Shown: positions 2,470 through 57,190 of the stretch, in pieces
Numbering within the stretch: position 1 is the first letter of the stretch
Layout of the letters: the number at the start of each line of letters is the position of its first letter
Sequence record: PZ151149.1
Length of the DNA: 64,000 nt
Source: a phage
Direction: 5' to 3' (one strand)
Notes under the pieces: model-generated
The model's input: the letters and a program-made list of their open reading frames with translations, nothing else
What the model was told of the DNA's origin: nothing
The model's database searches: none
Made by a program: the position numbers and the translations under genes

Positions 2470-3583
2470 CATTATGTTCAGCGCGGTTCGCTACTCCCGC
2501 GCCCGTTCTCTTGCGAACTGCTACATGTCACCATGTAGATCAGACTATATCACATTCTCATAGAGAATCCTGCCATTTCGAATCGCTTGATTCTACTCTA
2601 CTCGGTTCGTTACCCTTTCGATAGTCGTTGAACAACTGCATCTTTAAGCTCATTTTGATCAAACGGTGTTCTCTTACAGTATCCGCTATAATTCTTAGCA
2701 AAAGGTTTCTTCTTACCAAAAATCTCTTTTCCTGAATTGTGTGCTTCAACAAGAAAATTCACCATTTCATCAAATGTGAAACTTGCAAATTTAGCATAAG
2801 TTTCATTACGTTTTGACATTATTTTACTCATAACTTCCGGTCGTTTAGACGCTGAATTTTCGCGTTTCTCGCCAGTATTAAATGATACCAACTCACCGGA
2901 AACATATCTAGGATCATCACAACTAACTCTAAACCGATTTCCTTCCTTATCCTTAACGATAACAGTATTCTTTAGCTTTTCTGCCATAGAATCAAGACCT
3001 TTTCGTATAGTGTCCTCATCAGCCCCGAAATATTTCTTTCCGCTCATATCGGTTCTGGCTTTTCCGGTCTTGTTTTCGGATATTTTCAGTCTAACTTCCT
3101 CTCGCTTGGCTGGGTTATTGTCTCCAGCGAATGCATCTTTGGTTAACGCCTTCACTTTATCGTCATAAGATCCTCTAGAGATGAAAGCATATGCTCTCTT
3201 GCATTCACCGTTATTGAATATTAAGCACAATAACCGATGCGCCTCGACGTGGTCTTCAAACTTAAGCCTAACAAGATTCCATTTATCTAACCGATATTCA
3301 GGGAACATTGACTTCGGGCATATATGATGCACCTCGGAATATTCTTCACCCTGATACGGATTAGACACCAGTTTAATGTAGTCGTTTAATGCTTCCTCGT
3401 TATGTATTTCGTACTTTCTTAAAATGTCTTTCATCTCGCGCCTCCAATGTATATCAATATCTATATACATTATAAGACACGTTAGCTCAAAATGCAACTG
3501 CTGCTGATTGTCTCCTTAGAGATTTCCCAGCAATTAAGCAGGTTATTCGATCACTGTCACCAGTGAAAGCCCCATATCAGTTT
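2470..3583 (-). ncRNA. Group I (IA2, T4 td/nrdB-like) self-splicing intron interrupting gene 43
   Basis: 5' exon ends ...CCCU with intron GGGG internal guide 10 nt downstream (P1); 3' part has AACGACUAUC ... GAUAUAGUCUG ... CAUGGUGACAUG ... CUGAACAUAAUG-G nearly identical to the T4 td intron core/3' end; exon joining restores SL-YPSIIRQ reading frame. Confidence 0.8.
2610..3434 (-). CDS. Intron-encoded HNH homing endonuclease
   Basis: ORF inside the intron; motif EVHHICPKSMFPEY...N...HVEAH typical of HNH; ATG at 3434 preceded by GGAGG. Confidence 0.75.
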   Translation of the reverse strand: MKDILRKYEIHNEEALNDYIKLVSNPYQGEEYSEVHHICPKSMFPEYRLDKWNLVRLKFEDHVEAHRLLCLIFNNGECKRAYAFISRGSYDDKVKALTKDAFAGDNNPAKREEVRLKISENKTGKARTDMSGKKYFGADEDTIRKGLDSMAEKLKNTVIVKDKEGNRFRVSCDDPRYVSGELVSFNTGEKRENSASKRPEVMSKIMSKRNETYAKFASFTFDEMVNFLVEAHNSGKEIFGKKKPFAKNYSGYCKRTPFDQNELKDAVVQRLSKG

Positions 3584-4785
3584 AGGGAAGTAAGGTCAAA
3601 GCTCATCATCCAACGGTAAGCATTCGGCACAGGTTCTTTTACAAATGCGCCTGGATACGTCTGCTTAGGCTGTATCTTATTTTCCGGTACTACTTTACCC
3701 TCTGCTTTCAGAGATCCGAAGATAATAGCATCCCATACTTTCATCGGATTATAAACATGGTTAAATTTAATCTTTGCATAGAAACATAGGCTATACACCA
3801 GATCAATAAAACCACGCTTTTTATCAATCGCCAGCACACGGTCAACGTCGCCGATGTTATAATCGATGTAAAGTTGATGGTTGTCATCACGCAATTTCTT
3901 TAATGGACCATCATAATCAACCTTACCGATTCCTGTCTCATATTCAGCAACATAATCTAATGCATATGTTGGTTGAGTCGTAAAGCTAAATTTCTTGTAC
4001 AGGTCAATATAATCAAGGCTTTCGATCCCCATGATCGTAAATGCTTCACGCTCATTGCCAAAATCATCCTGTGAGATTCGGGATTTAATCTTACCGCACG
4101 GGCTTAATCGGTTTGCCGTTCGACTTCCAAACTTATTACTGATACGCTTAATGATATACGGGATATCGAATGTTTCTGTGTTCCAGCCAGTGAAGCCAAC
4201 TGGTCGGTTTTCCTCAAAGAATCGGATGTATTCTAATAGCAATTCATCTTCTGTATCATAGACGTTATAAACAACGCGCTCTACAATATCAGGTCGAAGA
4301 ATAGATTTGTTTGCTTCCCAGATTTCACCGTTTTTTCCTTTCAAATCAAATACAAAGAAACGATCATGTACGGAATCATAATGCGTAATTGCATCGATAG
4401 GATATTTCGCCTCTTCTGGTTTAGGAAATTCCGGTGCGGTGACCTCAATATCAACCCACGCTACACGGATTTTATTTCGGTCATATCGAATCTCACCTTT
4501 ATATGCATCAGACAGATAGGAGATGATAAAATCATCCATACCTAGTGCCTCTTGCCCCATTTCCCCCATCCTTTTACGCCATTTGTTGGCCTCGTTCATA
4601 GATGGGAATTTTTTAGCAATGCAAGGCTTGCCATAGATATCTTTATAATTTGTAACCATACCAGGCGCGGCATGATGAAATAATGTTGGCGTATATTCAA
4701 CGTAACGCTCTTGTTCTTGTCCAGCATCATCAATATAACGCTCGTAGATCTTATCACCTACTCGCTCACATGACAGAAAATACAT
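3584..4785 (-). CDS. 43: DNA polymerase gp43, exon 1 (N-terminal exonuclease part)
   Basis: Translation ERYID...AITHYDS...FTGWN...MSFDLTSL aligns to T4 gp43 N-terminus; ATG at 4785 with AGGAG SD (longest ORF starts at GTG 4815); the in-frame stop at 3577 is inside the intron. Confidence 0.85.
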
Positions 4786-30334: not shown

Positions 30335-30344
30335 TCTATATTCC

Positions 30345-30542: not shown

Positions 30543-30552
30543 AATATAATCC

Positions 30553-30843: not shown

Positions 30844-30929
30844 TGTTGATTCTCCTAGAAAGTGTCGTGCTTCGATGTGTGTATTGTGCAATAACACCGG
30901 ATCGCTGTCAACACTTTCTAAGAAAAATT

Positions 30930-37962: not shown

Positions 37963-38493
37963 TTAGTATTTTACGTTACGTCGAACGCCTTTTCGAATCT
38001 GACAAATAGCAGACGGTGAAACATTATATTTTCTTGCAAGTTCTACACCCTTCATATGGGGAGAAGATAAAATCTCTTCCACTTGGTCGTCGGTAAGTTT
38101 TGCGTTTCCGTGGTTCTCTCCCCAATTGTTGTTTAATCCTTCTTCCTTCGCATGAACAAGATTTCGGGTATCTGTCGTCCATTCAAGATTATAAAGGTCA
38201 TAGTTTTGTTTGTTTCCATCCTTATGATTAACTACACGGTAGTTATTTGGATTCGGAATAAACGCAACCGCCATAGCTTTATGCATGTTCACGGTTTTTC
38301 TAAATCCATCCGGCTTATAACATACTGTAAATTTAGAATAACCAGTTTTACCATAAACACTAATATAATTTCCGGTCTCTGTATTTCTAACCCTACCATG
38401 AGAGCTAATCTCAAATTGAGTGTAGGGCAACAGCGCATCAATCACTTTCCATTCTTCGACAGGATGGTCATCACAATATCTTTTAATCATCAT
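37963..38493 (-). CDS. Free-standing HNH homing endonuclease
   Basis: EISSHGRVRN (NUMOD4-like) and NHKDGNKQNYDLYNLEW (HNH) motifs. Confidence 0.7.
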   Translation of the reverse strand: MMIKRYCDDHPVEEWKVIDALLPYTQFEISSHGRVRNTETGNYISVYGKTGYSKFTVCYKPDGFRKTVNMHKAMAVAFIPNPNNYRVVNHKDGNKQNYDLYNLEWTTDTRNLVHAKEEGLNNNWGENHGNAKLTDDQVEEILSSPHMKGVELARKYNVSPSAICQIRKGVRRNVKY

Positions 38494-41648: not shown

Positions 41649-41666
41649 AATATAATCCTCACACAG

Positions 41667-41867
41667 TTAATCAGTATAGTCAATAATCTTGCACATTACA
41701 ATTGAAAGAACAAAGACCGCAACCCACATATAGATCCCAGCAATCAATGCTACTTCAATATCACAATATCCAAGAAGTACAACAGGAATAAAAACAAACA
41801 TACAGACCAGCGCAATGAAACTAGCATATACGCTCGAAAATATGATGGCACTATTATTAATTTTCAT
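41667..41867 (-). CDS. small hydrophobic membrane protein
   Basis: 66 aa. Confidence 0.4.
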   Translation of the reverse strand: MKINNSAIIFSSVYASFIALVCMFVFIPVVLLGYCDIEVALIAGIYMWVAVFVLSIVMCKIIDYTD

Positions 41868-44343: not shown

Positions 44344-44541
44344 TCATAGATCACAGATCCATCTAACAACACCACATACAGCGATCAGGAGTGTAGGACC
44401 ACTTGAGAAGAAAACCAATGTACAAAAATCATCTAGTGTAATACCGGAATAACTACCGACTGCAATCACACCGATGATCAGACACAGAAAGAAAACAAAT
44501 GCAATCAGAAACAAAGTATTACTAAACAGTTTAGTGATCAT
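44344..44541 (-). CDS. small membrane protein
   Basis: ATG at 44541. Confidence 0.35.
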   Translation of the reverse strand: MITKLFSNTLFLIAFVFFLCLIIGVIAVGSYSGITLDDFCTLVFFSSGPTLLIAVCGVVRWICDL

Positions 44542-44734
44542 TAGACACCCCACGACGGTCAATTTCAAAAACTTTCTTATCACCAACGAAGCATGTCACA
44601 ACTGCCTCGTTGACTTCCGCAAATTGTTGTGTTACCCACTTAAGGTCAGATCGAAACAATGTTTTGTTAATAACAAATGTTTTACCGATCTTATCCTTAC
44701 CCATAAATTTTGCGTTAACCATATCCAATTCCAT
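44531..44734 (-). CDS. hypothetical small protein
   Basis: 67 aa. Confidence 0.4.
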   Translation of the reverse strand: MELDMVNAKFMGKDKIGKTFVINKTLFRSDLKWVTQQFAEVNEAVVTCFVGDKKVFEIDRRGVSNDH

Positions 44735-44743
44735 ATTATAGCC

Positions 44744-44902
44744 TTATTTGCTAATCGCTAAACCTAATCCGAAGAGAGCACCCGACGCTACAGTATACCC
44801 GAAAGTTTCAAATGCAGTAAAGATATCTAAGCCACCAGCTAACAGAGTTGCAGTAAACAGAGTACCAGCTACGAACATAAAAGTTTTACCGATAAATTTC
44901 AT
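44744..44902 (-). CDS. possible small membrane protein (52 aa, below ORF-track cutoff)
   Basis: MKFIGKTFMFVAGTLFTATLLAGGLDIFTAFETFGYTVASGALFGLGLAISK; preceded by AGGAGAATCAAG leader and promoter. Confidence 0.35.
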   Translation of the reverse strand: MKFIGKTFMFVAGTLFTATLLAGGLDIFTAFETFGYTVASGALFGLGLAISK

Positions 44903-44933
44903 CTTGATTCTCCTTTCGTTTGTTTGTGGGGGT

Positions 44934-44962
44934 ATCTTACTACCCCCGTTTCATGTTGTCAA
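44934..44962 (-). promoter_or_regulatory. Early promoter with stem-loop (TTGACA-17-TAAGAT)
   Basis: GGGGGUAGUAAGAUACCCCC hairpin spans -10. Confidence 0.45.
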
Positions 44963-44968
44963 CTGTTT

Positions 44969-45346
44969 TTAAGAAAATTTTACTTCGTCTACAATGTCTT
45001 TCATGACATTGATTTCCATTCCGGTCAGAACACGTTGGAACATGTGCTGCACATACGCTTTCAGGTATTCATTTGATGGCTTACTATCGAAAGTCTTTTT
45101 AGTGTAGTAGTCATCACCGAAAGCTACTGTAATTACATTTTCGTCGTCGTTCCAAGCGATATAAGCAAATTTGCCGTTATCCCAGAAGCGAGCACTAATT
45201 GCTACTTTTGTTGAATCGAATCCTACTTCGCTGTGAGATTCAAGAACTACTTGCGTACCAGTTTCTTTATGAATGTAGTAGCGGGATACTAAGTCAAAGT
45301 TACGGGTGTAGTGACATTCGAATTTATCTTTAAACATCATCATCAT
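44969..45346 (-). CDS. hypothetical protein
   Basis: Starts MMMMFKDKFE at ATG 45346 with AGGAG SD. Confidence 0.5.
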   Translation of the reverse strand: MMMMFKDKFECHYTRNFDLVSRYYIHKETGTQVVLESHSEVGFDSTKVAISARFWDNGKFAYIAWNDDENVITVAFGDDYYTKKTFDSKPSNEYLKAYVQHMFQRVLTGMEINVMKDIVDEVKFS

Positions 45347-45383
45347 TTTGATTCTCCTAAGTGTGTTTCGTTTCGATATGTGC

Positions 45384-45412
45384 ATTATGCTATAGTCGTT
45401 TATGGTTGTCAA
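45384..45412 (-). promoter_or_regulatory. Early promoter TTGACA-17-CATAAT
   Basis: Minus strand upstream of 44969..45346. Confidence 0.45.
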
Positions 45413-45417
45413 CAACT

Positions 45418-45448
45418 AAAAACAAAAAACCCCGAAAAATTTTCGGGG
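45418..45448 (-). terminator. Rho-independent terminator after 57B
   Basis: Minus-strand hairpin CCCCGAAAAUUUUUCGGGG + UUUUUUGUUUUU. Confidence 0.6.
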
Positions 45449-45455
45449 TATAAAA

Positions 45456-45920
45456 TTACAGTTTGGTCGTCCACTCCAGGTCTAGATCTTCGACATACTC
45501 ATGAGATCGGACAATCTCTAAATCGAACTCTAGGTCAGTGCCAAATTTACGCGCACCAACATCATAAGAAAGCGTGATATGCGGTACATATTCAGGATAA
45601 TCCCACGTCGCACCTAAAGCAGTGCCGATATCGTGTCTGAATTGCATGTAGTCGCTTTCAAATGCCAACACAAGTGCATTAGTACCGGATTGAGTTTCAA
45701 ACACTTTCAAATGGCATAGAGAGCCTAAGAACTTCTCCCCTTCTTCTGGGATAAACGGAACATAAACACGAGAATATAAGATAGTGCTATGCAGTTTATC
45801 ACGAGTAACGGCATTAGGCAGATCGTAGAACTCCTGCAATTTTTCAATGCGGTCTAGTGTATCCTCAGTGAATTTAACCGCCGCATATGTACCTTTAACG
45901 GATTCTCGAAACGGGGTCAT
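45456..45920 (-). CDS. 57B: 2H-phosphoesterase family protein, gene 57B position (Acb1-like anti-CBASS nuclease candidate)
   Basis: Two H-x-T/S motifs (HSTILYS and HITLSY) ~80 aa apart; 154 aa; lies next to 57A and gene 1 as T4 57B does. Confidence 0.55.
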   Translation of the reverse strand: MTPFRESVKGTYAAVKFTEDTLDRIEKLQEFYDLPNAVTRDKLHSTILYSRVYVPFIPEEGEKFLGSLCHLKVFETQSGTNALVLAFESDYMQFRHDIGTALGATWDYPEYVPHITLSYDVGARKFGTDLEFDLEIVRSHEYVEDLDLEWTTKL

Positions 45921-45922
45921 AA

Positions 45923-46183
45923 TCAAGCCTCCGTGATCAGTTCTACTTCCTCTTTAGCGTCTTCTGCTGCTTCGTCTTTAGGGAGAAGTTCTTTTACTTC
46001 TTCGACAATAGCATCAAGGGAAACAGTGCCATTTTCATCTGGCTGAATACCCAGAATGCGTACCAGTTCCATCAAGACACGCTCACGATCTTTCAGTTGG
46101 CCTTCTAAGAATGCGGCTTTTTCTTGAGTGTCGAACAGACGTACTTTCAGGACATTAATCATTTGTTCATGCTGATTGGACAT
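45923..46183 (-). CDS. 57A: Tail-fibre assembly chaperone gp57A
   Basis: Small acidic coiled-coil protein upstream of gene 1; similarity to T4 gp57A. Confidence 0.7.
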   Translation of the reverse strand: MSNQHEQMINVLKVRLFDTQEKAAFLEGQLKDRERVLMELVRILGIQPDENGTVSLDAIVEEVKELLPKDEAAEDAKEEVELITEA

Positions 46184-46215
46184 ATTCACATCTCCTACTT
46201 GTTGATAACTTTTTA

Positions 46216-46872
46216 TTAAATGTTCGCGAGAATCGCGCTTTCAAATTCTTCTAATGTACCATTATTTATGATAATGGTTTCACCGTCAATAGGCAAAATT
46301 CCTTTTTCGGTGGAGTGAGTCGATACAATACCGGTATCACGCTGAATATGCAACACCTTAGCACGCATAGCACGCATGAGAGCAATTTCAATAGGCTGAC
46401 GCACATCAACTACTACAAAATACCCTTCTTCACTTTTGCGCTTCATAAACTCATTCACGAAGAGATTACACCAATAAAGCGGATTAATCAAGTTAACCAT
46501 TATCTCAGTACCGAGAGTGGTTAACATAAGACGAATAGACCAGACGTTATTATGTTTTTCGCCGATCTCATTAACGACCTTGTAAATCTCAGCCAGACTA
46601 TCACAAGTAAAGGAACTACCGCCATACTTCGAATCTAGCATAAGCAGACACTGAATAAACCACTTATGCGCGGTATAGGTATCAATACCTAGATCGGCTT
46701 CTCTGTCACGCCCCAACCCGTCAAAGTCAAGATAAGTCAGACCTAAGTCTGGTTGGCATTCGCATAAGATTTCTTTGATCGGTGCTGCCAGTTGATAACT
46801 GTGTCCATCAATGATTAACGCGGCAGTGTCTTTTCCTACGCGCTTTTTACCACAAAGTGCAATCAATTTCAT
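46216..46872 (-). CDS. 1: Deoxynucleoside monophosphate kinase gp1
   Basis: Walker A GKKRVGKDT and collinear similarity to T4 gp1. Confidence 0.85.
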   Translation of the reverse strand: MKLIALCGKKRVGKDTAALIIDGHSYQLAAPIKEILCECQPDLGLTYLDFDGLGRDREADLGIDTYTAHKWFIQCLLMLDSKYGGSSFTCDSLAEIYKVVNEIGEKHNNVWSIRLMLTTLGTEIMVNLINPLYWCNLFVNEFMKRKSEEGYFVVVDVRQPIEIALMRAMRAKVLHIQRDTGIVSTHSTEKGILPIDGETIIINNGTLEEFESAILANI

Positions 46873-46887: not shown

Positions 46888-47478
46888 TTACTTTCTAAAT
46901 GCAGGGTGCATAGCTTTAATACCTTCCACTCGCTGACGATCCGCCGCCTGAATTGCTGGGCGAGGAACGATCAGTTGACCATCACGTTCAATGCTCATTG
47001 TTTTAAATGGAAGAATTGCAGTACACACCAGAGATTCATGCATGTCATCGGTGTATGTTAACTCAAGTTCCCCCAATTGTGAACACCAACAACCATAAAA
47101 GTTAAAGGTGCATACAATGTTACGGCGTTCATTGTCCAGCATGTGAACTTGAACGGCTTCCGGCATTGAATCCTTCCACGCGGTGGAGTTACCGTTATTG
47201 TAGTCTACTATAGAAAGCATCCATGTGTAAAGGTTTAGATAGCTTTCCAAATGCTCATCGACAATAAACCGGACTACCAACGGGTCAAACTCTACATGAC
47301 TGGAAGGATAATCAGCGACCGCCAAACCATATTGACCAGCAACTTGTTTAGTCGGTGGAATGGTTATAGCCGGAAGTGTAACACCTTGACAGTTTAAAGT
47401 AAAGCCTTTTGTTAGTTGACCATCTGGAATGGCAATCTGCCAGTTGCTAGGGTTAGCATAGTTAAAGAGATTGGACAT
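46888..47478 (-). CDS. 3: Tail completion / sheath stabiliser protein gp3
   Basis: Synteny (adjacent to gene 1) and recalled similarity to T4 gp3. Confidence 0.6.
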   Translation of the reverse strand: MSNLFNYANPSNWQIAIPDGQLTKGFTLNCQGVTLPAITIPPTKQVAGQYGLAVADYPSSHVEFDPLVVRFIVDEHLESYLNLYTWMLSIVDYNNGNSTAWKDSMPEAVQVHMLDNERRNIVCTFNFYGCWCSQLGELELTYTDDMHESLVCTAILPFKTMSIERDGQLIVPRPAIQAADRQRVEGIKAMHPAFRK

Positions 47479-47508
47479 TACGATTCCTTAAATGAAAATA
47501 TTTATCAA

Positions 47509-48042
47509 CTAAAAATTTAAACTAGCATAATCTCCAAAATGTTCCTTTGCTGCTTCGTCATAAGCCTTTGCAGCATCAACTTCGTCAAGAAAGACGCCCA
47601 AATGGACCTTTCTACGATTGATTGATATCTGAGCACACCATTTGTTATTCTGTGTTCTAATCACTCCTTTATACTTACTCTTACAACCATCAAGTTTTCC
47701 GCGATTGAATGCATTTTCCTGAGAAGTGGATTCTCTCAAGTTATCCGGTGCATTATTTTCTCGGTTTCTATCTATATGGTCGATCATTTTAACTTGCGTA
47801 CCATGTTCAAGATACCAAACAACCCTATGAACTTTAATGACCAAAGAATAGCCATCACTGCGCCAAAACTTAAAACATAGATAACCTCGACTATTTTTAT
47901 AAACTTTAACCGGGTCTCCTGCCTTATACCATCGACCATTCTTTCCACTATCTTTCAAATGGTACAATATACCATTAACGTGTTTATACTTATCTCTAAT
48001 TTCTTTTTGTGTAAAATCATCCCACATCTTAAACCCAGACAT
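47509..48042 (-). CDS. Free-standing HNH-AP2 homing endonuclease
   Basis: HNH motif IDHIDRNRENNAPDNL and AP2-type DNA-binding domain YKGVIR...WCAQI...VHLGVF...AAKAYDEAA; ATG with AGGAG SD. Confidence 0.7.
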   Translation of the reverse strand: MSGFKMWDDFTQKEIRDKYKHVNGILYHLKDSGKNGRWYKAGDPVKVYKNSRGYLCFKFWRSDGYSLVIKVHRVVWYLEHGTQVKMIDHIDRNRENNAPDNLRESTSQENAFNRGKLDGCKSKYKGVIRTQNNKWCAQISINRRKVHLGVFLDEVDAAKAYDEAAKEHFGDYASLNF

Positions 48043-48262
48043 ACATTTTCTCCTGATAATATTATTAATAACAACATCAATCTAACATATCTAGTATATA
48101 ATGTCAATTGTCGCTTTGCGACGTGCCGTAGGCACTGACTACTTTTTAACCGAAACAAATTTTCTATATTCTAAAGATCTTTCTTCGTTTTGGTTATGTT
48201 TTAACCAATAACTATATTTTTATACAGTAATAAATAAAACTGGTACTATACGAGGACTTCTT

Positions 48263-48517
48263 ATGACAGAAGACATTTTGTTAAAACTCTATGATCGTTT
48301 GGATAACGAATTAGCAACATTGCGGGGTGAAGTTCTCTATTTGTCTAAATGCAATACAGATCTGATTAAGCAGATTGCCGAAAGGGATGACCAAATAAAA
48401 TCCCTTTCAGGCGCATTACGTGATCGCGACAAGGCATTAGAGATTTTACAGCGTGTAACCAATAAAGAAGAGTTGAAAGACTTTCTACATGGTTATGCTC
48501 ACGCCATCGATCTATAA
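48263..48517 (+). CDS. hypothetical coiled-coil protein (isolated plus-strand gene)
   Basis: 84-aa ORF, GAGGA SD 6 nt upstream, followed directly by a hairpin terminator. Confidence 0.45.
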   Translation: MTEDILLKLYDRLDNELATLRGEVLYLSKCNTDLIKQIAERDDQIKSLSGALRDRDKALEILQRVTNKEELKDFLHGYAHAIDL

Positions 48518-48520
48518 TAA

Positions 48521-48548
48521 AAAGCCCGTCAATGACGGGCTTAATTTT
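48521..48548. terminator. Bidirectional hairpin terminator
   Basis: GCCCGUC-AAUG-ACGGGC flanked by U tracts on both strands; sits between convergent genes. Confidence 0.55.
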
Positions 48549-49575
48549 AATATGTATCAGCTAATTTAATTATGTTATCAAGTTCCGTGATTGGTAAAGT
48601 TTCTGTGTATCCATCTTTCAACATGGATTTATCAACAACGCCACAATGATAAGTTCTCTTTATTTCCTTTTCAAGTTCCCACGGAATCCAGCCATCAACA
48701 CTTTGTTTGACGTAAACAAGTTTGTGAACAAACTTAGATTTCTGCATATGTTGTTTCATTCTGGTTTCCGGTAATTCATTGGTTACACCAAACTTTATAA
48801 ATTTATCATCTAACGTCTGGATATAAAAATATCCCATCTCAGATGGACGATAGCCAGAAGAACTACATTTCGGACACCCTTTAGCATTTCTGTTGAACGT
48901 ACAATATCTTACAGAAAATTCGGCGTCATGTTTTGTACATTTAAGTTTTATCCATGAATTTGCAGTACCTATCCATTCACCATCGACACCTATATATTCA
49001 TACCCTAACTTTTTACATTTATCTTCTATTCTAGATAGTGCATCTTCCACGGGAACGACATATTCCGTCTTAAATTGTTCAGCCGCACATTTCTTACAAC
49101 CACATGTACCATGATTTTTAAAATCAAAGAACTTTGTATTCTTCCAAATATGGTCATGTTTCTTGCATCTAAGAATCATCTTAGTAATTTGTGATTTCCA
49201 GCCACCAACAAATCCCAAAAATTCATAATCAAGATCTTTACATTTTTCTTCAATGAATTTGGTTGCTTCATCTTCTGTCATAACTCCCCTACATTGAGGG
49301 CAACCAACAATAACCTTTTTAGCATAGAAACTATTACTGGAAACATCATAGACAGTTCCATGCTTATTGCATTGGATAACAGATCTAGTCAATTTTCCTT
49401 TCCATTCTCCAGTAAATCCTAAGAATGTATGGTCGACAAGTTTACATCTTTCAATAACTTTATCTGCAAACTCTCTAGGAGATTTTGTTACCTTGTTTAC
49501 TCTGTATTCTATTTCTTCCGGTTGACGAAGATCATAAACGTGGGGATTTCTCCCCACGGAATTAATATTAAGCAT
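48547..49575 (-). CDS. Zinc-finger-repeat protein with C-terminal T5orf172/GIY-YIG-like domain (putative homing endonuclease or DNA-binding protein)
   Basis: Three ~45-aa repeats each with C..H ... C.KH ... GCP.C; C-terminal GYFYIQTLDDKFIKFGVTNELPETR resembles T5orf172; start ATG 49575 overlaps stop of gene 2. Confidence 0.55.
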   Translation of the reverse strand: MLNINSVGRNPHVYDLRQPEEIEYRVNKVTKSPREFADKVIERCKLVDHTFLGFTGEWKGKLTRSVIQCNKHGTVYDVSSNSFYAKKVIVGCPQCRGVMTEDEATKFIEEKCKDLDYEFLGFVGGWKSQITKMILRCKKHDHIWKNTKFFDFKNHGTCGCKKCAAEQFKTEYVVPVEDALSRIEDKCKKLGYEYIGVDGEWIGTANSWIKLKCTKHDAEFSVRYCTFNRNAKGCPKCSSSGYRPSEMGYFYIQTLDDKFIKFGVTNELPETRMKQHMQKSKFVHKLVYVKQSVDGWIPWELEKEIKRTYHCGVVDKSMLKDGYTETLPITELDNIIKLADTY

Positions 49576-50389
49576 CTTTCCACACCTTCCTTGCATCATA
49601 GTTTTTACCTTTAGAAACAAATTTATATGTGTTAAGGTAGATAATATTGCTCCAGTCTTTCGGGCTAATCTCAACAAGTTTTGTTTTAATGTGTCCCGGT
49701 AGATATGCTTTGATCATGTGGTCACTACCACGCATACCTTTTACATCACTCCATTTAATCTTCAAGCGTGTTTTATTGCTCAAGGTAGGAGTAGATGCAT
49801 ATTGCTTTAAAAGTGCTTCCAGAAACTGCTGACGGGCTTTAGGCGTTACATAGTGTAAGTTAAGACCCAGCATTACAGTATTACCCGCCTTTGTCTTAGA
49901 ATCACCCAGACAAATGATCAGCGGGAAAACATCCCAATATGGCAAAGTATCTTTATACTTCGCATCATACATAAAGGTATAGATTCGCCCTACTTGCGGT
50001 TTTACAATCTGGTGTCCCTTTATTCCAGCTTTTATTGTTTTAGTAAACCACTCCTGTGATTTTTCTTTAGGACGACTCTTTGATACAGCACGCATAGACG
50101 CACGAAAATCATTAATCATCATCATTGCGCGTTGCTGCTTATTGAGACCCTTTGCACCTTTCCCTTTTAGTTTTTCAACTTCTATTGCTGTTTTAATTTC
50201 GCTGGCATAACGAGACATACTTTTAGTGAAAGTCGCATAGGCTATTCCCTTAGAATCTGCAAATGCTTTAGCTGTCATTCCTTTGGCTTTTGCTTTCGCA
50301 AATTCTACACCCAATTCGACCCACTGTTTAGACTTTCGCTTTTGGGGAGACGGCTTTTCGTCTTCTGTGATTATTTCAAATACGCTCAT
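49568..50389 (-). CDS. 2: DNA end-protector protein gp2 (by synteny and length)
   Basis: 273 aa from ATG 50389 with GAGGA SD; position between gene 3 and gene 4; call rests mainly on gene order. Confidence 0.5.
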   Translation of the reverse strand: MSVFEIITEDEKPSPQKRKSKQWVELGVEFAKAKAKGMTAKAFADSKGIAYATFTKSMSRYASEIKTAIEVEKLKGKGAKGLNKQQRAMMMINDFRASMRAVSKSRPKEKSQEWFTKTIKAGIKGHQIVKPQVGRIYTFMYDAKYKDTLPYWDVFPLIICLGDSKTKAGNTVMLGLNLHYVTPKARQQFLEALLKQYASTPTLSNKTRLKIKWSDVKGMRGSDHMIKAYLPGHIKTKLVEISPKDWSNIIYLNTYKFVSKGKNYDARKVWKDA

Positions 50390-50423
50390 AATATTGTCCT
50401 CTATGTTTATGTTTGTTACACAC

Positions 50424-50452
50424 TTGACAATCCTCTTTGCTATTGCTAAAAT
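50424..50452 (+). promoter_or_regulatory. sigma70-type promoter TTGACA-17-TAAAAT for plus-strand HNH gene
   Basis: Exact -35; plus strand; 60 nt upstream of ATG 50516. Confidence 0.45.
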
Positions 50453-50515
50453 GCAGACGAAAATAAACAGCGATACTTGTTGATAAATATCATTATAACA
50501 CAGGAGGAACATTAG

Positions 50516-51538
50516 ATGCAAGATATTAAGAACAAAATTTTGATGCAGTTTCCGAATGCAGATATCAAGTATTTAGAAAAGTATCTAGAAATTTGTGCAA
50601 ACCCAGATAAGGATGGGGAATTAGAGAGGCATCATATTCTACCAAAATCAATTTGGAAGGAATATGAAGACCTTAAAATTCATGATTTTAATGCTGTTCA
50701 CTTGAACACCGTTCGTCATATGATGGCACACTACTATTTCAGTAAAGCAACAAATTCCATTTGGAAGTCTGTTGTTATGATGTTTAATACCAGAATTGAT
50801 ATTATGAAGGAATTGCCAGAAGATATTGTGTTGAAACTTGCTGGTATATCAGAAGAGGCAAAGCGAAAACATGTATACACGGAAGAATCTAGACTGAAAA
50901 TGTCGGAATCACAAAAACGTTTCATGGCTTCTCTTGATGAAGAAGAATTAAAACGTCGCCATAAGAAAAGAACTGATTCCGTTAAAGAACATTTTAGAAA
51001 CTTGAGCGATGAAGAACGAGAAAGAAAGTATAAAGAACGTGGCAAGAAAATATCAAAGGCGTTAAGTAATAGATCAGAGGAAAAACTTAAATTACGAAGA
51101 GAAAGGCTTCTACAAACTATAAACTCAAAGTCAGACGAAGAAAAACAAAGAATCGCCAAACTACTTTCAGATTCACAAAAACCGAAAGAAACATGGGGAA
51201 AATTTGATGAGTTATATGCATTATGGATTGATCTGAATATGCCGGGTCAATATGTATTCAAGCGCGAGGCCATTAAACGTGGATACCCAGATAGGTCATA
51301 TGATTACATCGTTAAAGAAATGAAAAATAAGTACATAAAGGAGAATGGAAACGACATAATAAAATTAAATCCCAGAAAAAATTCTGGTGTCTGGGTATAT
51401 TATGACGAAATATATAAGCTGTGGAAAGAAAATGGTATGCCTAGCGATAGAAAAACAAGAAAAATAGCGGTCGAGAATGGTTATCCCGACCAATGCTATC
51501 AAACTATAGTAAAAGACTTTAAGAACTCACTTATTTAA
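50516..51538 (+). CDS. Free-standing HNH endonuclease with C-terminal repeat domain
   Basis: N-terminal ERHHILPKSIW...N..HLNTVRHMMAH HNH motif; two C-terminal repeats (YDEIYKLWKENGMP...ENGYPD and FDELYALWIDLNMP...KRGYPD). Confidence 0.65.
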   Translation: MQDIKNKILMQFPNADIKYLEKYLEICANPDKDGELERHHILPKSIWKEYEDLKIHDFNAVHLNTVRHMMAHYYFSKATNSIWKSVVMMFNTRIDIMKELPEDIVLKLAGISEEAKRKHVYTEESRLKMSESQKRFMASLDEEELKRRHKKRTDSVKEHFRNLSDEERERKYKERGKKISKALSNRSEEKLKLRRERLLQTINSKSDEEKQRIAKLLSDSQKPKETWGKFDELYALWIDLNMPGQYVFKREAIKRGYPDRSYDYIVKEMKNKYIKENGNDIIKLNPRKNSGVWVYYDEIYKLWKENGMPSDRKTRKIAVENGYPDQCYQTIVKDFKNSLI

Positions 51539-52000
51539 ACCTTTAAAACCGAACACCTTTTTTAATGTGTGTTCGGTTATGATTTTAAATTCCATATTAT
51601 GTTTTTTACACAATGCTACTGCCGCTGCCCACTTTTCGGTATTTTTCGTCCACGTCCAAGCCTCCATCATATAACGCTGCTTTGTTTTAGTCGTTAATCG
51701 CTTTGGCTTTTCTGGTGGTCTAGTCTCTTTGGCTGGCTTAATTTCCCATAAATGCTCTTTTCCATCATCAAACTTAACATAAACATCAACAAAATATCTG
51801 TGACGCTTACCGTCTGTTGATGAATTGTAAGGAATTACAACGGTCTCAGATCCCCATTTAACCACATGAGGATTACGGTCACACCATTTAAAAACATGCA
51901 ATTCCCAGCTTGAACGGTATGTGATTTTCCGTATATCCCCTTTATACTTTTCCTTATTCTCAGGAACATACTTGCCCTTATAAGTGTTAGATCCTCCCAT
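51527..52000 (-). CDS. 4: Head completion protein gp4 (by synteny)
   Basis: 157 aa; divergent from gene 53 as in T4; YRSSWE...KWG...YFVDVYVKFDDGKEHLWEIKP. Confidence 0.5.
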   Translation of the reverse strand: MGGSNTYKGKYVPENKEKYKGDIRKITYRSSWELHVFKWCDRNPHVVKWGSETVVIPYNSSTDGKRHRYFVDVYVKFDDGKEHLWEIKPAKETRPPEKPKRLTTKTKQRYMMEAWTWTKNTEKWAAAVALCKKHNMEFKIITEHTLKKVFGFKGLNK

Positions 52001-52015: not shown

Positions 52016-52023
52016 TATAAATA
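52016..52023 (+). promoter_or_regulatory. T4-type late promoter box TATAAATA upstream of gene 53
   Basis: Exact TATAAATA about 33 nt upstream of the gene 53 ATG. Confidence 0.5.
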
Positions 52024-52055
52024 CATAATACTATTTATCAATTGAGGGTGCTAAA

Positions 52056-52610
52056 ATGCTCTTTTCTTTCTTCCCTGCCATTGAATACAACGGCAAGATG
52101 ATTACTGACATTGTGCGCAATTACCGCGCATATTTCAATGCAATAATTTCTGATTATAACATACAAACATATTACATTCAAGGTAGTCCACGACCGGAAC
52201 AGGTTGCATATGAAGTATACGGAAACCAGCAACTTTATTGGATCTTGCTGATGCTTAATGACGTATACGATCCGTTTCATGACTGGATCACCGATCAAGA
52301 GACAGCATACGAATCAGCCGAACAACGATATGCAAACGTAGGAGGAAATCAAGTATTATACCACGTTGATATTGACGGAAACAAGTATTGGAATCTTACC
52401 GAATATCCGAAAGGATCAAGCAATTGGTATGATAAAGGGGATATTCATCATCGTCATTTGCAGTTTCATGGTGCACTGTCGGCGGTAGACACACTGGAAG
52501 ATGCGATCCTCCGCAACGAGGAACGACGCAAGATCAAGATCATAGATCCTACACAAATTAAACAATTTATTAACGCATTCATTCGAGAAATGGAAAAGGC
52601 TGATGTGTAA
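52056..52610 (+). CDS. 53: Baseplate wedge protein gp53
   Basis: Similarity to T4 gp53 (MLF.FF..IEY, YYI.GSPRPE, YG N.QLYW.LLM.ND.YDP, KIKII). Confidence 0.85.
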   Translation: MLFSFFPAIEYNGKMITDIVRNYRAYFNAIISDYNIQTYYIQGSPRPEQVAYEVYGNQQLYWILLMLNDVYDPFHDWITDQETAYESAEQRYANVGGNQVLYHVDIDGNKYWNLTEYPKGSSNWYDKGDIHHRHLQFHGALSAVDTLEDAILRNEERRKIKIIDPTQIKQFINAFIREMEKADV

Positions 52611-52621: not shown

Positions 52622-54421
52622 ATGCTAATGTTTAATAACTCCGTTAAATGGTTTACCGGAATTGTAGAAAACAGGGAAGATCCATTAATGCTGGGGCGCG
52701 TTCAGGTTAGGATTCATGGTATACATCCTTCGCTATCCGCACACGGTGACATTCAAGGTCTCCCAACCGAAGATCTATTATGGATTACGCCAGTACAAGA
52801 CATTACAAGCGCGGCGATCTCCGGTATAGGTCAAAGTCCTACTGGTATTGTTGAAGGTTCAATGGTATTTGGATTGGCTTTAGATGAACGTTATTTAAAC
52901 TGCGTTATTCTGGGTACTATTGCCGGACAATATACAGAGAAACCACTCACTACAGAAGGTTTTTGTGACCCTTCGGGTGCATATCCTCGTTATATTGGTA
53001 ATGATGTTAATATTCTTGCCCGTGGCGGTATTAACCCAGAAACCGGACAAACAACAAAACCTGATAGTGTCTATATTCGAGATGAAAACACTGGAGTTGC
53101 AGTAAATCCAGACGACGAGCCATTAGATCAAATTCCGGTTGATGATAATCCTGATTTTACAATAGAAAAAATGCTTCGTGGCGATGAGGGATATCGTGAG
53201 AAATGGTATCTTGATTCAGAAGGATATCCGACAATAGGCATCGGGCATTTGATCATTTATAAGAAAACCAGTGATCTGGGTATTATCAATAATGAACTTT
53301 CTAAGCTGGTAGGGCGTGAAGTTACAAACGGAAGACTTACCGCCGAAGAAGTTAGTAAAGTATTTGCCGACGATATAGAAAAGACCCGTCGTGATATGCG
53401 CAAACATCCACGAATTGCACCTGTCTATAATAAATGTAATGCTTCTCGTCGTATGGCATTAGAAAATATGGCGTTTCAAATGGGCGTTGGTGGATTGGGT
53501 AAATTTAAGAATAGCCTTGCTGCAATGCTAGCAGAAGAATGGAAACAAGCCTATGATGGATTACGTCAATCGGTATGGGCTAACCAAACTCCAGGACGCG
53601 CCAACCGTGTTTCTAAAATTATTCTTACTGGTAACTTAGAATCATATGGCGTAATTGCTCCTAAGAAAGAGGAATCAATTTCTGATGATCCGAGAGCACG
53701 TTTGAGAAAAACCCGTATTGCTGCATATAAGACGCAGAGAGCAGAAGAAGACCCAGAAGCACCGTTTACCCCACAAGATACACGAATCATGTTTAAAGAG
53801 CCTAAGAGTTCGTATTCTGCAAGGTATCCATATAACCATGTGTACGAGTCAGAGAGCGGTCATATTATCGAGATTGATGATACTCCTTCTCATGAGCGAT
53901 ATCATCGTAAACATCCTTCTGGTACATTTGAAGAAACCAGACCGGACGGAACGAGGGTAGAAAAGATTGAAGGTGATGATTATCTGATCGTTAAACAAGG
54001 CCGGAAAGTAAACGTTAAGGGTAATTTGCAAGTTGTTGTTGAAGGTGACGCGCAAGTTTATTATATGGGTAATGTGATGCAAACCGTTGATGGTAACGTC
54101 ACGGAATTTATTCGTGGTAATGTTAATCAGACCGTTGAGGGTACAGCTAATATGCATGTTGTAGGTGATGTTACCGCTCAGCTTGACGCTAATTTAACGG
54201 CTAATGTCAAGGGTAATGCTGAATTAATGATCGAGGGTAACACTACCGAAACAATTAAAGGTAACTATGATTTAACCGTTGAGGGTAATTTTAATATGAC
54301 CGTCAATGGCACTAAATCAGATCAGGTTAATGGTGACTGGTCCCGTAATTGTGGTGCAAGCGTTAAAGATATTGCATCGGGTACAGTTAAAATTGATGGT
54401 AGCCGTATTGATCTTGGGTGA
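52622..54421 (+). CDS. 5: Baseplate hub / tail lysozyme gp5
   Basis: N-terminal OB domain similar to T4 gp5, central T4-lysozyme-like domain (GYPTIGIGHLI), C-terminal VxGxxxxx beta-helix repeats. Confidence 0.9.
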   Translation: MLMFNNSVKWFTGIVENREDPLMLGRVQVRIHGIHPSLSAHGDIQGLPTEDLLWITPVQDITSAAISGIGQSPTGIVEGSMVFGLALDERYLNCVILGTIAGQYTEKPLTTEGFCDPSGAYPRYIGNDVNILARGGINPETGQTTKPDSVYIRDENTGVAVNPDDEPLDQIPVDDNPDFTIEKMLRGDEGYREKWYLDSEGYPTIGIGHLIIYKKTSDLGIINNELSKLVGREVTNGRLTAEEVSKVFADDIEKTRRDMRKHPRIAPVYNKCNASRRMALENMAFQMGVGGLGKFKNSLAAMLAEEWKQAYDGLRQSVWANQTPGRANRVSKIILTGNLESYGVIAPKKEESISDDPRARLRKTRIAAYKTQRAEEDPEAPFTPQDTRIMFKEPKSSYSARYPYNHVYESESGHIIEIDDTPSHERYHRKHPSGTFEETRPDGTRVEKIEGDDYLIVKQGRKVNVKGNLQVVVEGDAQVYYMGNVMQTVDGNVTEFIRGNVNQTVEGTANMHVVGDVTAQLDANLTANVKGNAELMIEGNTTETIKGNYDLTVEGNFNMTVNGTKSDQVNGDWSRNCGASVKDIASGTVKIDGSRIDLG

Positions 54422-55289: not shown

Positions 55290-57190
55290 CAAAGCAAAAG
55301 ATTACACAAATTCCTGATATTTTTAATGCTGCTACATTCGATGAAATTAAAAGCGCATTAACAGACTGGATGAGAAACCAGGAAGAATTTAAAGATTTTG
55401 ATTTTAATGGTGCTGGTATTAACGTATTGATGGACTTGCTCGCATATAACACTCTGTATATTCAGCAATTCGCTAACGCCGCGCTATATGAATCTTTTAT
55501 CAGAACGGCAATTAAGCGTAGTTCAGTTGTTCAAGCCGCGCAAGATTTAGGATATTTGCCAGCGAGTAAAACTAGTGCATCAACTACTATTATGTTGCAC
55601 GTATCACATCCACGAAATCCGGCAAGTATTCGAATCCCACGAGGAACTAAATTTATTGCAAGTGTGGATCGCCAGACGTCTTACCCGTTTGTGACTACAG
55701 AAGACGTCGTGAGTGTTTTAGGTTCAAATGGTTTATATACGCCTATGCTTAAAGTCGCACAAGGTCGTATTGTTCGTACAGAAATGTTATTTGATCCGAA
55801 GAAACAAATTCTGATCCGCGATCCTGATATTGACCGCGCTCAGGTTAAGTTGTGGGTAGACGGTGCTGAATGGAAAGACTGGACACGAGAAAGTATTGTT
55901 AATGCAACTGGTGCAAGCAATATTTTCTATATGCGTGAAACCGTAGACGGTCATACAGAAATCTTCTTTGGTGAAGGTGAATCAACTTTATCTGCTGCTG
56001 GCGGTGCACTGGAAGCAAATTATATTGGTGGACTTAAGCCGTCAACTGGTGCTAATATTGTTATCGAATATATCAGCACTAAAGGCGCGGAAGCAAACGG
56101 TTCAGTTAATTTCACATACGCGGATACCCTTGCATCTATCTCTATTGTTACAATTATTGAGAATCCGACAAATGACCGTGATTATGTCGGTGCAGATGGT
56201 GGCGGTGATCCTGAATCAATCGAACGTATCCGTGAACTTGCTCCGGTAATGCGTGAATCTCAGCGTCGTTGTGTTACTGCTTCCGACTATGAGGCTTTTG
56301 TGTCTAGCCGTTTTGGTAGTATTGTTCAGGCGGTACAATGTTTCACCGACCGAGAAAAACCGGGTTATGCTTTTGTTGCTGTTAAGCCGAAATCTGGCTT
56401 GCGCTTGACAACTGTTCAAAAAGAAGATATGCGTGATTATCTGGCAAAATATAACCTTGCCCCTATCACACCGAGCATCATTGACCCCAGCTATCTGTAT
56501 ATTAAACAGAATATTAAAGTTTCCTATTCGATCAATGACTTATCAGAATCAGAGCAGTGGTTGCGCGGTGCGGTTATTGATCAGATTGACGCATATTATA
56601 CCGACGAAGTGGAAATTTTTAACCAGACCTTTAGTAAGTCTAAAATGCTTGCGCGTATTGACAAAGCTGATGTATCGGTGATAGGTTCTAGTGCAGAGAT
56701 CGAGATGGTGCGAGAGATCGACAACTTCTATAAAGCGCCTATGGCTGGAATCAAGTTTTTAAACCAGTATAAGAGCGGAATCAAGTCTAGTTCATTCAAC
56801 TTCGAAAAGGACGACAAGCAATATCCGATCCATTATGTAAGTACAGAAATGAACAAAGAATCCGGTTTAGCTAAATTGCTGGTTGGACCTTTCCCTGTTG
56901 GTTCTGTAATCGCTTTACCGCACTATTCCGGCACTGATTTTGATAAAGAGGTTATCGACGGTGCGGACCTATACTTTGAGGTTGGAGAGGTTCAGCATTA
57001 TGAAGACCTTATTTCATGGGATCTGGGTAAACTGAATATCAATAGCGATCGCTTTACTGGTTCATATATTGAGTTGACAGCTAAACCGATTGCTGATAAC
57101 ATCTTTACTAAAGACGGTTCTTTGATCGTGTTTGAAAACGATCTCCGTCCTCAGTACACAACTATTAGTCTGGAGGCAATTGCTCAATGA
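55286..57190 (+). CDS. 6: Baseplate wedge protein gp6
   Basis: 634 aa; N-terminal similarity to T4 gp6 ([36 protein letters not shown]). Confidence 0.9.

Follow-up and report, generated by a model that had tools for sequence, protein, structure and literature searches.

Three putative homing endonuclease genes interspersed among genes 3, 2 and 4 of an RB49-like T4-type coliphage

The window analysed here, a 64,000-nucleotide stretch of record PZ151149.1, belongs to a Krischvirus (RB49-like T4-type coliphage) whose best match is phage Cognac (97.9%), and it contains three intact nuclease genes interspersed among gp3, gp2 and gp4 (Table 1), within insertions flanked by gp3, gp2, gp4 and gp53. 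An initial annotation, made from the sequence alone, had given the coordinates and strands of the three open reading frames correctly. Its statement that genes 3, 2 and 4 are neighbours in T4 was borne out, and the gp2|gp4 gap of T4 holds no endonuclease gene. RB49 ORF130, absent from that annotation, sits between insertions 1 and 2; this resident gene, which is not an endonuclease gene and lies outside all insertions, is kept in every relative including the outgroup. The hairpin beside it is an annotated terminator in GEC-3S, G2248 and Makalu_002.

Table 1 Features of the gene 3-2-4 region and other endonuclease loci in the window (a point marks features given without strand)
Feature	Position	Strand	Basis or remark
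Insertion in DNA polymerase gene 43	2470..3594	-	HNH-type ORF inside at 2610-3434 (-)
NUMOD4 + HNH_3 endonuclease gene, free-standing	37963..38493	-	nrdC.11 to vs.6 gap; missing in RB49
Gene 3 (tail completion/sheath stabilizer)	46888..47478	-	PHROG 45 at 3e-44, Pfam gp19 family; RB49 gene 3 syntenic; flanks insertion 1
gp3 5′ end and leader patch co-varying with insertion 1	47431..47506	.	~10 positions; comparison of genomes with and without insertion 1
HNH_3 + AP2 endonuclease gene, 177 aa	47509..48042	-	Pfam, PHROG and PDB sequence matches
Insertion 1, 596 bp	47510..48104	.	Boundary ambiguity 1 bp; adjoins two small hairpins; gp3 start codon 31 nt downstream
ORF130, 84 aa, resident gene	48263..48517	+	PHROG 17832 at 5e-57
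Bidirectional terminator-like hairpin	48522..48542	.	Common to ORF130 and the gp2/insertion 2 transcription unit
Insertion 2, 1022 bp in place of 1 bp	48546..49567	.	Exactly between gp2 stop codon and gp2 terminator; junction reading and alignment
CapR-repeat + T5orf172/GIY-YIG-type endonuclease gene, 342 aa	48547..49575	-	Family-level domain evidence
GGGG...CCCC hairpin, then TTTAT	49539..49558	-	Codons 6-12 of insertion 2 gene, directly past gp2 stop
Dense divergent gp2 3′ end patch linked to insertion 2	49567..49637	.	~20 differences in 70 bp, 5 aa changes
Gene 2 (DNA end protector)	49568..50389	-	PHROG 429 at 2.7e-71; RB49 gene 2 syntenic
Insertion 3, net +1126 bp	50405..51530	.	gp2 ribosome-binding site to gp4 stop codon
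Sigma70-type promoter-like site, TTGACA-17-TG-n-TAAAAT	50424..50452	+	Inside insertion 3, ATG 64 nt downstream
MobE-like HNH endonuclease gene, 340 aa	50516..51538	+	PHROG, motif, profile match to MobE
Gene 4 (head completion)	51527..52000	-	PHROG 218 at 1.2e-60; Pfam TnsA-like N at 5e-21
Divergent gp4 tract strictly linked to insertion 3	51533..51896	.	56 fixed differences

The insertion 1 protein matched both Pfam families implied by its earlier HNH-AP2 label (HNH_3 at 6.8e-14, AP2 at 8e-4), belongs to PHROG 99 'HNH endonuclease' (1e-46) and, among PDB sequences, matched plant AP2 domains (2.9e-7) and I-HmuI (1u3e, 6e-4). The HNH_3 family and the 1u3e match liken it to I-HmuI, which is intron-encoded, whereas the insertion 1 gene is free-standing. 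[quoted passage not shown] Insertion 1 is missing as a single clean block in Cognac, RB49 and 9 further genomes; its carriers beyond the window are AV108, phiS and an IMG/VR contig (L009), with the ORF intact in all three and 176 of 177 residues identical. Within the co-varying gp3 patch, positions 47489 and 47506 are fixed between genomes with the insertion (window, AV108, phiS) and those without it, and six further positions (47431-47434, 47473 and 47481) are fixed bar one exception.

The insertion 2 protein contains three CapR zinc-ribbon repeats, encoded by internal repeats of ~225 nt, followed by a C-terminal T5orf172/GIY-YIG-type domain in which Y251, G263, R272 and E302 are invariant. 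It scored below the Pfam thresholds for T5orf172, MUG113 and GIY-YIG, and indeed for any GIY-YIG-clan model; of its earlier description as a zinc-finger/T5orf172 protein, the CapR zinc ribbons stand, while the T5orf172 label holds at family and fold level only and found no direct Pfam match. The ATG of the gene, as read from the sequence, lies within the last gp2 codons (ATGCTTAA overlap), through which its translation appears to be coupled to that of gp2. The hairpin directly past the gp2 stop is a possible attenuator, its stem being kept in the Phi1 and ECD7 copies, and the alternative gene at this site in AV108 carries, in the corresponding position, a terminator-like hairpin of its own.

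This architecture is reminiscent of the putative homing endonuclease genes (HEGs) of the CapR/T5orf172 type in ICP1 and many other phages, which occur near essential genes (Barth, Dunham & Seed 2023, PMC10448857). In these, as in insertion 2, CapR 'beads on a string' precede a T5orf172/MUG113-type GIY-YIG domain, presence is variable, the neighbouring genes are essential structural ones, and DNA-binding repeats are swapped between alleles with the nuclease domain unchanged; a tblastn search with the insertion 2 protein extended to ICP1 tcgB, a 'putative homing endonuclease'. Insertion 2 differs from them in its Krischvirus host lineage, its site at the gp2 3′ end, its sub-threshold Pfam scores and its apparent translational coupling to gp2. 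By contrast, no sequence relationship was detected to the canonical GIY-YIG enzymes I-TevI and SegC or the other T4 Seg proteins, in which the domain order is reversed, with the nuclease domain N-terminal, and the DNA-binding module is different.

Insertion 2 was found at full length in 11 records, and the gp2-proximal site holds three CapR/T5orf172 alleles (window, Phi1 and AV108 types), each accompanied by a distinct gp2 3′ patch. The nuclease domains of the window and Phi1 types are 100% identical, whereas CapR repeats 2-3 are only 47-77% identical; the AV108 gene belongs to the same family but is distinct, at 27% aa identity. The gp2 patch is a candidate target or immunity region. It is present in MIZ4 without insertion 2, which fits either loss of the HEG or a resistant empty allele, and the linkage is thus not absolute.

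The insertion 3 protein had no match in Pfam but belongs to PHROG 655 'homing endonuclease' (6e-15) and contains an invariant E37-H39-H40...N59...H68...H72 motif and a predicted beta-beta-alpha unit (pLDDT 78-95). Aligned by hhalign, its family profile matched T4 MobE at 97.1% probability (E=5.7e-11, 99 columns), over the E-HH-I-P...N-V-L...H..AH motif and the next SEE-R-KMS segment, and its last ~50 residues share 47% identity with the C-terminal ends of MobE and SegA proteins from other T4-like phages. The family is very rare, with 6 clusters in 5.8 billion proteins, and the insertion was found only in PHB13, Makalu_002 and Cognac. Like T4 mobE, the gene is intergenic between two essential genes, but it occupies the gp2|gp4 site, where T4 has none; its product is longer (340 aa, compared with 141 aa for MobE), with a duplicated module at the C-terminus and a long linker of helices, and it lies on the strand opposite its neighbours with a sigma70-like promoter to itself, whereas T4 mobE has been described as promoter-less (PMC2988022). 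The earlier reading as a plus-strand HNH endonuclease gene with its own sigma70 promoter stands for the HNH motif and the near-consensus site (11 of 12 positions, among the two best in 5.9 kb), the promoter itself being a consensus match only. The same limit applies to a late-promoter-like octamer, GATAAATA, at 50482-50489, and the promoter-like sequences point at both the HEG and gp2.

The insertion 3 gene is convergent with gp4 and overlaps its 3′ end by 12 nt, and recoding at the end of gp4 blurs the right boundary of the insertion. Apart from the 56 fixed differences in the gp4 tract, only one difference linked to insertion 3 occurs elsewhere in the alignment outside the insertions. Identity of the linked gp4 allele reaches 99% or more only among the three phages carrying the insertion and is ~80% or less to other Krischvirus gp4, against a backbone identity of 95-99%.

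Two further polymorphic endonuclease genes that had been proposed elsewhere in the window are both real. The first lies in an insertion that splits gene 43 within the DxxSLYPS motif and is probably a group I intron, with a sub-threshold match to the group I intron model (33.9 bits, E=1.5e-6); the second is the free-standing gene at 37963-38493. Compared with RB49, large insertions with endonuclease ORFs number exactly five in the window, so the earlier count of 'at least five' holds.

Comparison with relatives, including a base-by-base alignment covering 14 genomes, revealed no insertion at any of the three sites in RB49, GEC-3S, MIZ4, G2494 or an outgroup contig (L010, gp2 79% identical), which share the order gp3-ORF130-gp2-gp4. 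Among ~60 Krischvirus records, insertions 1, 2 and 3 occur in 2, 11 and 3, respectively, in differing combinations: 2 and 3 in Cognac, 2 in Phi1 and ECD7, 3 in Makalu_002 and PHB13, 1 in phiS, and 1 with the different site 2 gene in AV108. None of these records has all three insertions, nor does any contig with the exact insertion 3 protein. The presence/absence comparison proposed at the outset thus yielded empty sites and patchy carriers; together with the adjacency of the genes in T4, this refutes the reading of the ORFs as conserved core genes of the phage group, for which no support was found and to which we assign almost no probability. Gene content, domain families, clean presence/absence polymorphism, empty ancestral sites and one-sided linked haplotypes are direct observations. 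Terminal inverted repeats and target-site duplications were found at none of the three insertions, so these are not transposons.

An insertion accompanied by a patch of divergence in the essential gene next to it is what homing with co-conversion predicts, although such flanks could also reflect ordinary homologous recombination of an HEG and its neighbouring block from an unsampled lineage, without nuclease action. More broadly, the genes might be passive cargo of general homologous or illegitimate recombination or of promoter-stem-loop (PeSL) cassette shuffling, their nucleases inactive or irrelevant to spread. PeSL shuffling has been proposed for RB49 and phi1, accounting for most of their indels (Arbiol et al., PMC2839356), and would accommodate the consensus sigma70 promoter in insertion 3 and the PeSL-type hairpin at the beginning of insertion 2, with the 80%-identity gp4 block as a foreign piece of backbone arriving with insertion 3. 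However, the sites lie in a conserved structural module rather than in hyperplastic regions, flanking PeSL-like repeat pairs were not found around the insertions, all three genes encode HEG-family nucleases whose catalytic residues do not vary even among distant homologues, their ORFs are intact in every carrier examined, and the linked divergence borders the insertion on one side only, as it does in co-conversion, making passive carriage very unlikely.

It is very unlikely, in our judgement, that one or more of the genes is not purely selfish but has been domesticated for phage competition (marker exclusion of co-infecting relatives), anti-satellite or anti-defence functions, or local gene regulation. 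T5orf172/CapR proteins (Odn, CapR) have been recruited into the ICP1-PLE conflict and HEG activity underlies marker exclusion when T2 is crossed with T4 (PMC10448857, PMC2988022), and insertion 3 brings promoter-like sequences toward the HEG and gp2. Yet most close relatives are viable phages without these genes, the only defence-system models matched were generic 'homing endonuclease' ones, and neither a satellite nor a defence context was seen; domestication is, moreover, largely compatible with the homing mechanism and not a true alternative to it.

Taking these observations together, which support the earlier interpretation, we consider it highly probable that the three genes are independent free-standing HEGs in the gaps gp3|ORF130, ORF130|gp2 and gp2|gp4, their nuclease families all being typical of phage HEGs. 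From the sequences we infer their homing, along with nuclease activity, target positions, the directionality of inheritance and regulatory roles of the promoter and hairpins. The process would follow the 'intronless homing' of T4, where the same biology has been described (PMC2988022). In a mixed infection with a relative lacking the HEG, each enzyme would cut or nick the genome of that relative within or close to the neighbouring essential gene, with the 5′ end of gp3, the 3′ end of gp2 and gp4 as likely targets; after resection, the phage recombination machinery would repair the break from the HEG-bearing template, copying the HEG along with an adjacent stretch of host gene, and the carrier would be protected by the recoding of its own target region. 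Near-identical copies have already been deposited and annotated as (putative) homing endonucleases, which makes this locus a clear, ordinary and well-documented instance of a known phenomenon, the homing endonucleases of phages.

Three nuclease-gene insertions, here called INS1, INS2 and INS3, lie amid genes 3, 2 and 4 of the window, in a region where T4 has genes 1, 3, 2, 4 and 53 contiguous with no gene intervening. Approximately 60 Krischvirus (RB49-like, Straboviridae) coliphage records match the 7-kb stretch around the locus at 93-98% identity, with phage Cognac being the closest match (97.9% identity, 92% query coverage of this stretch). We derived the gene order from the ORF listing together with Pfam and PHROG scans, and all three endonuclease-like ORFs were found where the initial annotation had placed them. 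The resident plus-strand gene ORF130 (84 aa, PHROG 17832), wedged amid the minus-strand genes gp3 and gp2, is conserved genus-wide and has no T4 counterpart at the same position. In addition, gp4 strongly matches the Pfam model of a TnsA-like endonuclease N-terminal domain (5e-21) and is labelled 'head completion nuclease' in some recent records.

Genes around the three insertions, and the extents of the insertions, in the window
Feature	Coordinates	Strand	Basis	Remarks
gp1, dNMP kinase	46216-46872	-	ORF listing, Pfam/PHROG	
gp3	46888-47478	-	ORF listing, Pfam/PHROG	
INS1	47509-48042	-	ORF listing, Pfam/PHROG	
INS1 extent	47510-48104		junction reading	596 bp, 1-bp ambiguity; 31 nt upstream of gp3 ATG
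ORF130	48263-48517	+	ORF listing, Pfam/PHROG	
INS2	48547-49575	-	ORF listing, Pfam/PHROG	
INS2 extent	48546-49567		junction reading	exactly between gp2 stop codon and bidirectional terminator
gp2	49568-50389	-	ORF listing, Pfam/PHROG	
INS3	50516-51538	+	ORF listing, Pfam/PHROG	
INS3 extent	50405 to ~51530		junction reading	net +1126 bp; gp2 ribosome-binding site to gp4 stop codon
gp4	51527-52000	-	ORF listing, Pfam/PHROG	
gp53	52056-52610	+	ORF listing, Pfam/PHROG	
gp5	52622-54421	+	ORF listing, Pfam/PHROG	

A presence/absence comparison of the gene 3-2-4 region revealed that each insertion is patchily distributed and that its site is empty in relatives. RB49 reads gp3-ORF130-gp2-gp4, contains none of the three genes and has 11 bp separating gp2 from gp4, and GEC-3S, MIZ4 and G2494 share this arrangement with all three sites empty. 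Scanning IMG/VR with gp2 recovered six loci, including one extra INS1 carrier (L009) and one outgroup (L010, gp2 only 79% identical), in which all three sites are likewise empty, making the empty state the ancestral one. The possibility that the ORFs are core genes, which the initial annotation had set against its own reading, is refuted by RB49, GEC-3S, MIZ4, G2494 and L010, all of which are without them. In the phage collection, full-length copies of INS1, INS2 and INS3 occur in 2, 11 and 3 records, respectively, and none of its ~60 Krischvirus records holds all three together. INS2 alone is present in Phi1, ECD7, G2248 and ELT3, INS3 alone in Makalu_002 and PHB13, and INS1 alone in phiS and the IMG/VR contig L009, while Cognac combines INS2 with INS3 and AV108 carries INS1 and has its INS2 site occupied by another gene. 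Contigs encoding the exact INS3 protein lack INS2 wherever the INS2 site is visible. All three insertions are intergenic, clean indels varying in presence among collinear close relatives, the pattern of free-standing homing endonuclease genes (HEGs). Four independent metagenome INS3 carriers among the Logan contigs (L026-L029) break off at the same place, 84 nt upstream of ORF130 and near where INS1 inserts; the assemblies may have broken there because INS1 is present in only part of the phage population within a sample.

At the junctions, the terminator beside INS2 is common to ORF130, the INS2 ATG lies inside the final gp2 codons, and the 3' ends of INS3 and gp4 overlap by 12 nt. Inverted terminal repeats and target duplications were found at none of the INS1, INS2 or INS3 junctions, and Pfam and PHROG scans detected no transposase domains, which rules out a transposon or insertion sequence. 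A pair of short GC-rich hairpins next to each other (GTCGC-TTTG-GCGAC and GTGCC-GTAG-GGCAC, 48106-48140) marks the exact point of INS1 insertion and is conserved in all relatives. Alternatively, the genes may have been imported passively, through general recombination or through the promoter-stem-loop (PeSL) cassette shuffling proposed for RB49 and phi1, in which homologous promoter and GGGG/CCCC stem-loop motifs stand on both sides of the gene (Arbiol et al. 2010, PMC2839356). Single promoter-like or hairpin elements are indeed present, but the flanking repeat pairs are absent, the insertions sit in a conserved module, and every cargo gene is an intact nuclease with conserved catalytic residues, so that passive import is disfavoured, although it could still account for the original arrival of the genes.

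All three insertions code for nucleases that belong to recognised HEG families, for INS2 at the level of family and fold. INS1 (177 aa) combines a catalytic HNH_3 domain (Pfam 6.8e-14, 51.7 bits, cut-off 24.8) with a following AP2 DNA-binding domain, whose match is weaker (20.1 bits, under the Pfam cut-off of 33.3); among PDB sequences it matched AP2 domain structures at 2.9e-7 and the HNH homing endonuclease I-HmuI at 6e-4. INS3 (340 aa) has no match in Pfam and nothing in a PDB sequence search, and matches PHROG 655 'homing endonuclease' at 6e-15. Within its small family the motif E37-H39-H40...N59...H68...H72 is invariant, and exactly these residues are spanned by a confidently predicted beta-beta-alpha unit in the AF2 model (strands 37-40 and 60-63, helix 65-79, pLDDT 78-95), as expected of an HNH (beta-beta-alpha-metal) nuclease, whose unit bears histidines for catalysis and metal binding and a structural Asn. 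A profile-profile comparison matched INS3 to T4 MobE, whose annotation places it in the H-N-H family (hhalign probability 97.1%, E=5.7e-11), and its C-terminal ~50-residue module, which occurs twice in the protein, resembles the C-termini of MobE/SegA proteins of other T4-like phages (47% identity). NCBIfam returned no match for any of the window's five endonucleases.

INS2 (342 aa) contains repeated CxxC...CxxC zinc-ribbon modules of the CapR type, with 2-3 stretches matching PF21817 at 1.2e-14, and matches PHROG 681 'endonuclease' at 1.6e-79. Its DNA has internal repeats of ~225 nt, its structure model has three alpha+beta modules, and the homologue alignment shows invariant C137, C160, C163 and C213 and nearly invariant C69, C92, C95, C234 and C237. 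The label T5orf172 given to this gene holds through homologues and fold but not through a direct Pfam match: INS2 itself matches neither PF10544 (T5orf172) nor PF13455 (MUG113), its isolated C-terminus matches only PF01541 GIY-YIG (E=0.04, 14.7 bits), and its family profile found nothing among PDB sequences, whereas the 25 aligned full-length homologues match CapR in all cases, MUG113 in 12 and T5orf172 in eight. In this alignment Y251, K261, G263, R272 and E302 are invariant and F262 nearly so, with GIY-YIG-like spacing, namely 11 residues from Y251 to F262 and nine from G263 to R272, which is near the spacings of I-TevI. The C-terminal domain was modelled at pLDDT 87-96, and it displays the conserved Tyr...(Tyr/Phe)-Gly...Arg...Glu of the GIY-YIG fold. 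A direct comparison of INS2 with T4 SegC and I-TevI detected no relationship; the 'phi1 segC' of Arbiol et al. therefore cannot be equated with INS2 on sequence.

We aligned 14 genomes and scored positions for separating carriers from non-carriers. For INS3, 56 fixed differences all fall within gp4 (51533-51896), with only one elsewhere in the aligned backbone. This segment is found at >=99% identity only in the three INS3-bearing phages and at ~80% or less in every other Krischvirus, while the sequence flanking it on both sides is 95-100% identical; in gp4, 93 of 468 nt differ between the window and RB49, but only 24 of 157 residues. INS2 is linked to ~20 differences within 70 bp at the gp2 3' end (49567-49637), causing five amino-acid changes, and every genome without INS2 differs at these positions apart from MIZ4, where the patch occurs without the HEG. 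INS1 is linked to ~10 differences in the gp3 5' end and leader (47431-47506). The linked tracts are graded in length (~75, 70 and 365 bp for INS1, INS2 and INS3). One-sided divergent tracts abutting an insertion are the expected product of co-conversion in double-strand-break repair, a mechanism reviewed for T4 (PMC2988022), and the one-sided haplotypes in gp3, gp2 and gp4 would represent its population-level signature. INS1-INS3 have probably spread by homing with co-conversion of this kind, and the divergent tracts would also furnish the target that a HEG carrier should have under the T4 mechanism, one recoded so as to resist cleavage (PMC2988022). Nuclease families, empty sites and linked haplotypes together support the proposed mobile homing-endonuclease-type insertions and, as judged from comparative genomics, point to clear, textbook-like free-standing HEGs in a T4-type phage.

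The gp2 3' site is held by three alleles, window-type, Phi1-type and AV108-type, each with its own gp2 patch. AV108 encodes a 380-aa CapR+T5orf172 protein at the INS2 position (T5orf172 at E=0.0075) that shares only 27% identity with INS2, and none of the similarity extends to the DNA; a ~450-bp divergent gp2 tract accompanies this gene. The Phi1 copy of INS2 is mosaic, with a nuclease domain (residues 241-342) 100% identical to that of the window, a first CapR repeat 90-97% identical and repeats 2-3 only 47-77% identical, and the gp2 patch of Phi1 is likewise a distinct version. The same modular exchange of DNA-binding repeats has been described for T5orf172 HEGs (PMC10448857). Since each allele is paired with its own recoded patch, the DNA-binding repeats may have co-evolved with the sequence that serves as target or confers immunity, and CapR repeat composition may covary with that sequence. 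Whether the locus amounts to a small 'HEG island' and to a series of naturally arisen specificities among CapR-repeat/T5orf172 nucleases is a speculation we hold only tentatively and regard as rather doubtful; on such a reading the MobE-like HEG may have moved most of the essential gp4 (~80% identity) across lineage boundaries. If true, HEGs would be actively replacing alleles of Krischvirus head- and tail-completion genes, and a CapR repeat-to-DNA recognition code would be readable from natural allele/patch pairs.

INS3 is antisense to its neighbours, parts gp2 from gp4 and brings its own promoter-like elements. The sigma70 promoter ascribed to it corresponds to a near-consensus site at 50424-50452 (TTGACA-17-(TG)-TAAAAT, 11/12 consensus positions), among the two best sigma70 matches in 5.9 kb, making it a candidate promoter by consensus match; 3' of this site lie a GATAAATA octamer and then an AGGAGG ribosome-binding site. 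On the minus strand, a TGTTATAAT extended -10-like element (50492-50500) could drive gp2. INS2 appears to be translationally coupled to gp2, and a conserved GGGG...CCCC hairpin followed by TTTAT at its start (49539-49558) could attenuate read-through; in AV108 a terminator-like hairpin distinct from this one occupies the corresponding position of the alternative gene. The GATAAATA octamer occurs at 47499-47506(-), 52032-52039(-) and 50482-50489(+), usually inside TTGATAAATA, 20-30 nt upstream of the gp3, gp4 and INS3 start codons. The perfect T4 late consensus TATAAATA has a single occurrence in the region, upstream of gp53 (52016-52023), and GATAAATA could be a variant late promoter of the genus.

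Compared with RB49, the window contains exactly five large insertions with endonuclease ORFs, in agreement with the proposed minimum of five homing-endonuclease-type genes (gene 43, 37963-38493, INS1, INS2 and INS3). A 1125-bp element (2470-3594), found in 12 Krischvirus records, splits DNA polymerase gene 43 inside its DxxSLYPS motif, and encodes an HNH-type ORF (2610-3434, minus strand) with similarity to INS3 (E=2e-9). The element's match to an Rfam group I intron stays below threshold (33.9 bits, gathering score 50, E=1.5e-6), and JSE has just 43% of the element, apparently the intron form that lacks the ORF. The free-standing NUMOD4+HNH_3 gene at 37963-38493 lies directly beside nrdC.11, the same neighbour that flanks T4 mobD (Table 1, PMC2988022), and is present at >=99% in four records, with 011D4, Whisky and JSE among them, and at 78% in phiS. 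Conversely, the RB49 HNH-AP2 gene ORF040, between gene 47 and a-gt.4, is missing from the window (12696-12700 versus RB49 26366-26930), and INS1 is a 51%-identical paralogue of it at a different, new site. At 30307-30856 (RB49 44513-46397), two RB49 segments of 240 bp and ~1.1 kb are absent, the latter containing RB49p079 (annotated gp38-like adhesin/host-specificity protein) and p080, possibly a host-range cassette difference. At 41664-41863 (RB49 56742-57138), 200 bp replaces ~400 bp in a small-ORF region.

Domestication of INS1-INS3 for competition or defence is conceivable but lacks support: most relatives do without the genes, which match no defence models, and we rejected their membership in a defence system on the latter ground. 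INS1-INS3 reveal no new kind of element, and near-identical copies in the deposited records of Makalu_002, AV108, phiS, Phi1 and Skers already bear the annotation (putative) homing endonuclease; the filling of three sites in one genome, the gp4 replacement and the three-allele gp2 series are details rather than surprises. The locus offers a natural case of probable intronless homing outside T4 that is both compact and well controlled, with three unrelated HEG types in 4 kb, empty-site controls, graded tracts and a three-allele site, and it offers candidate target regions for the uncharacterised T5orf172/CapR and MobE-like enzymes. The apparent import of foreign alleles of essential virion genes by HEGs bears on phage taxonomy and on recombination analyses of therapeutic Krischviruses.
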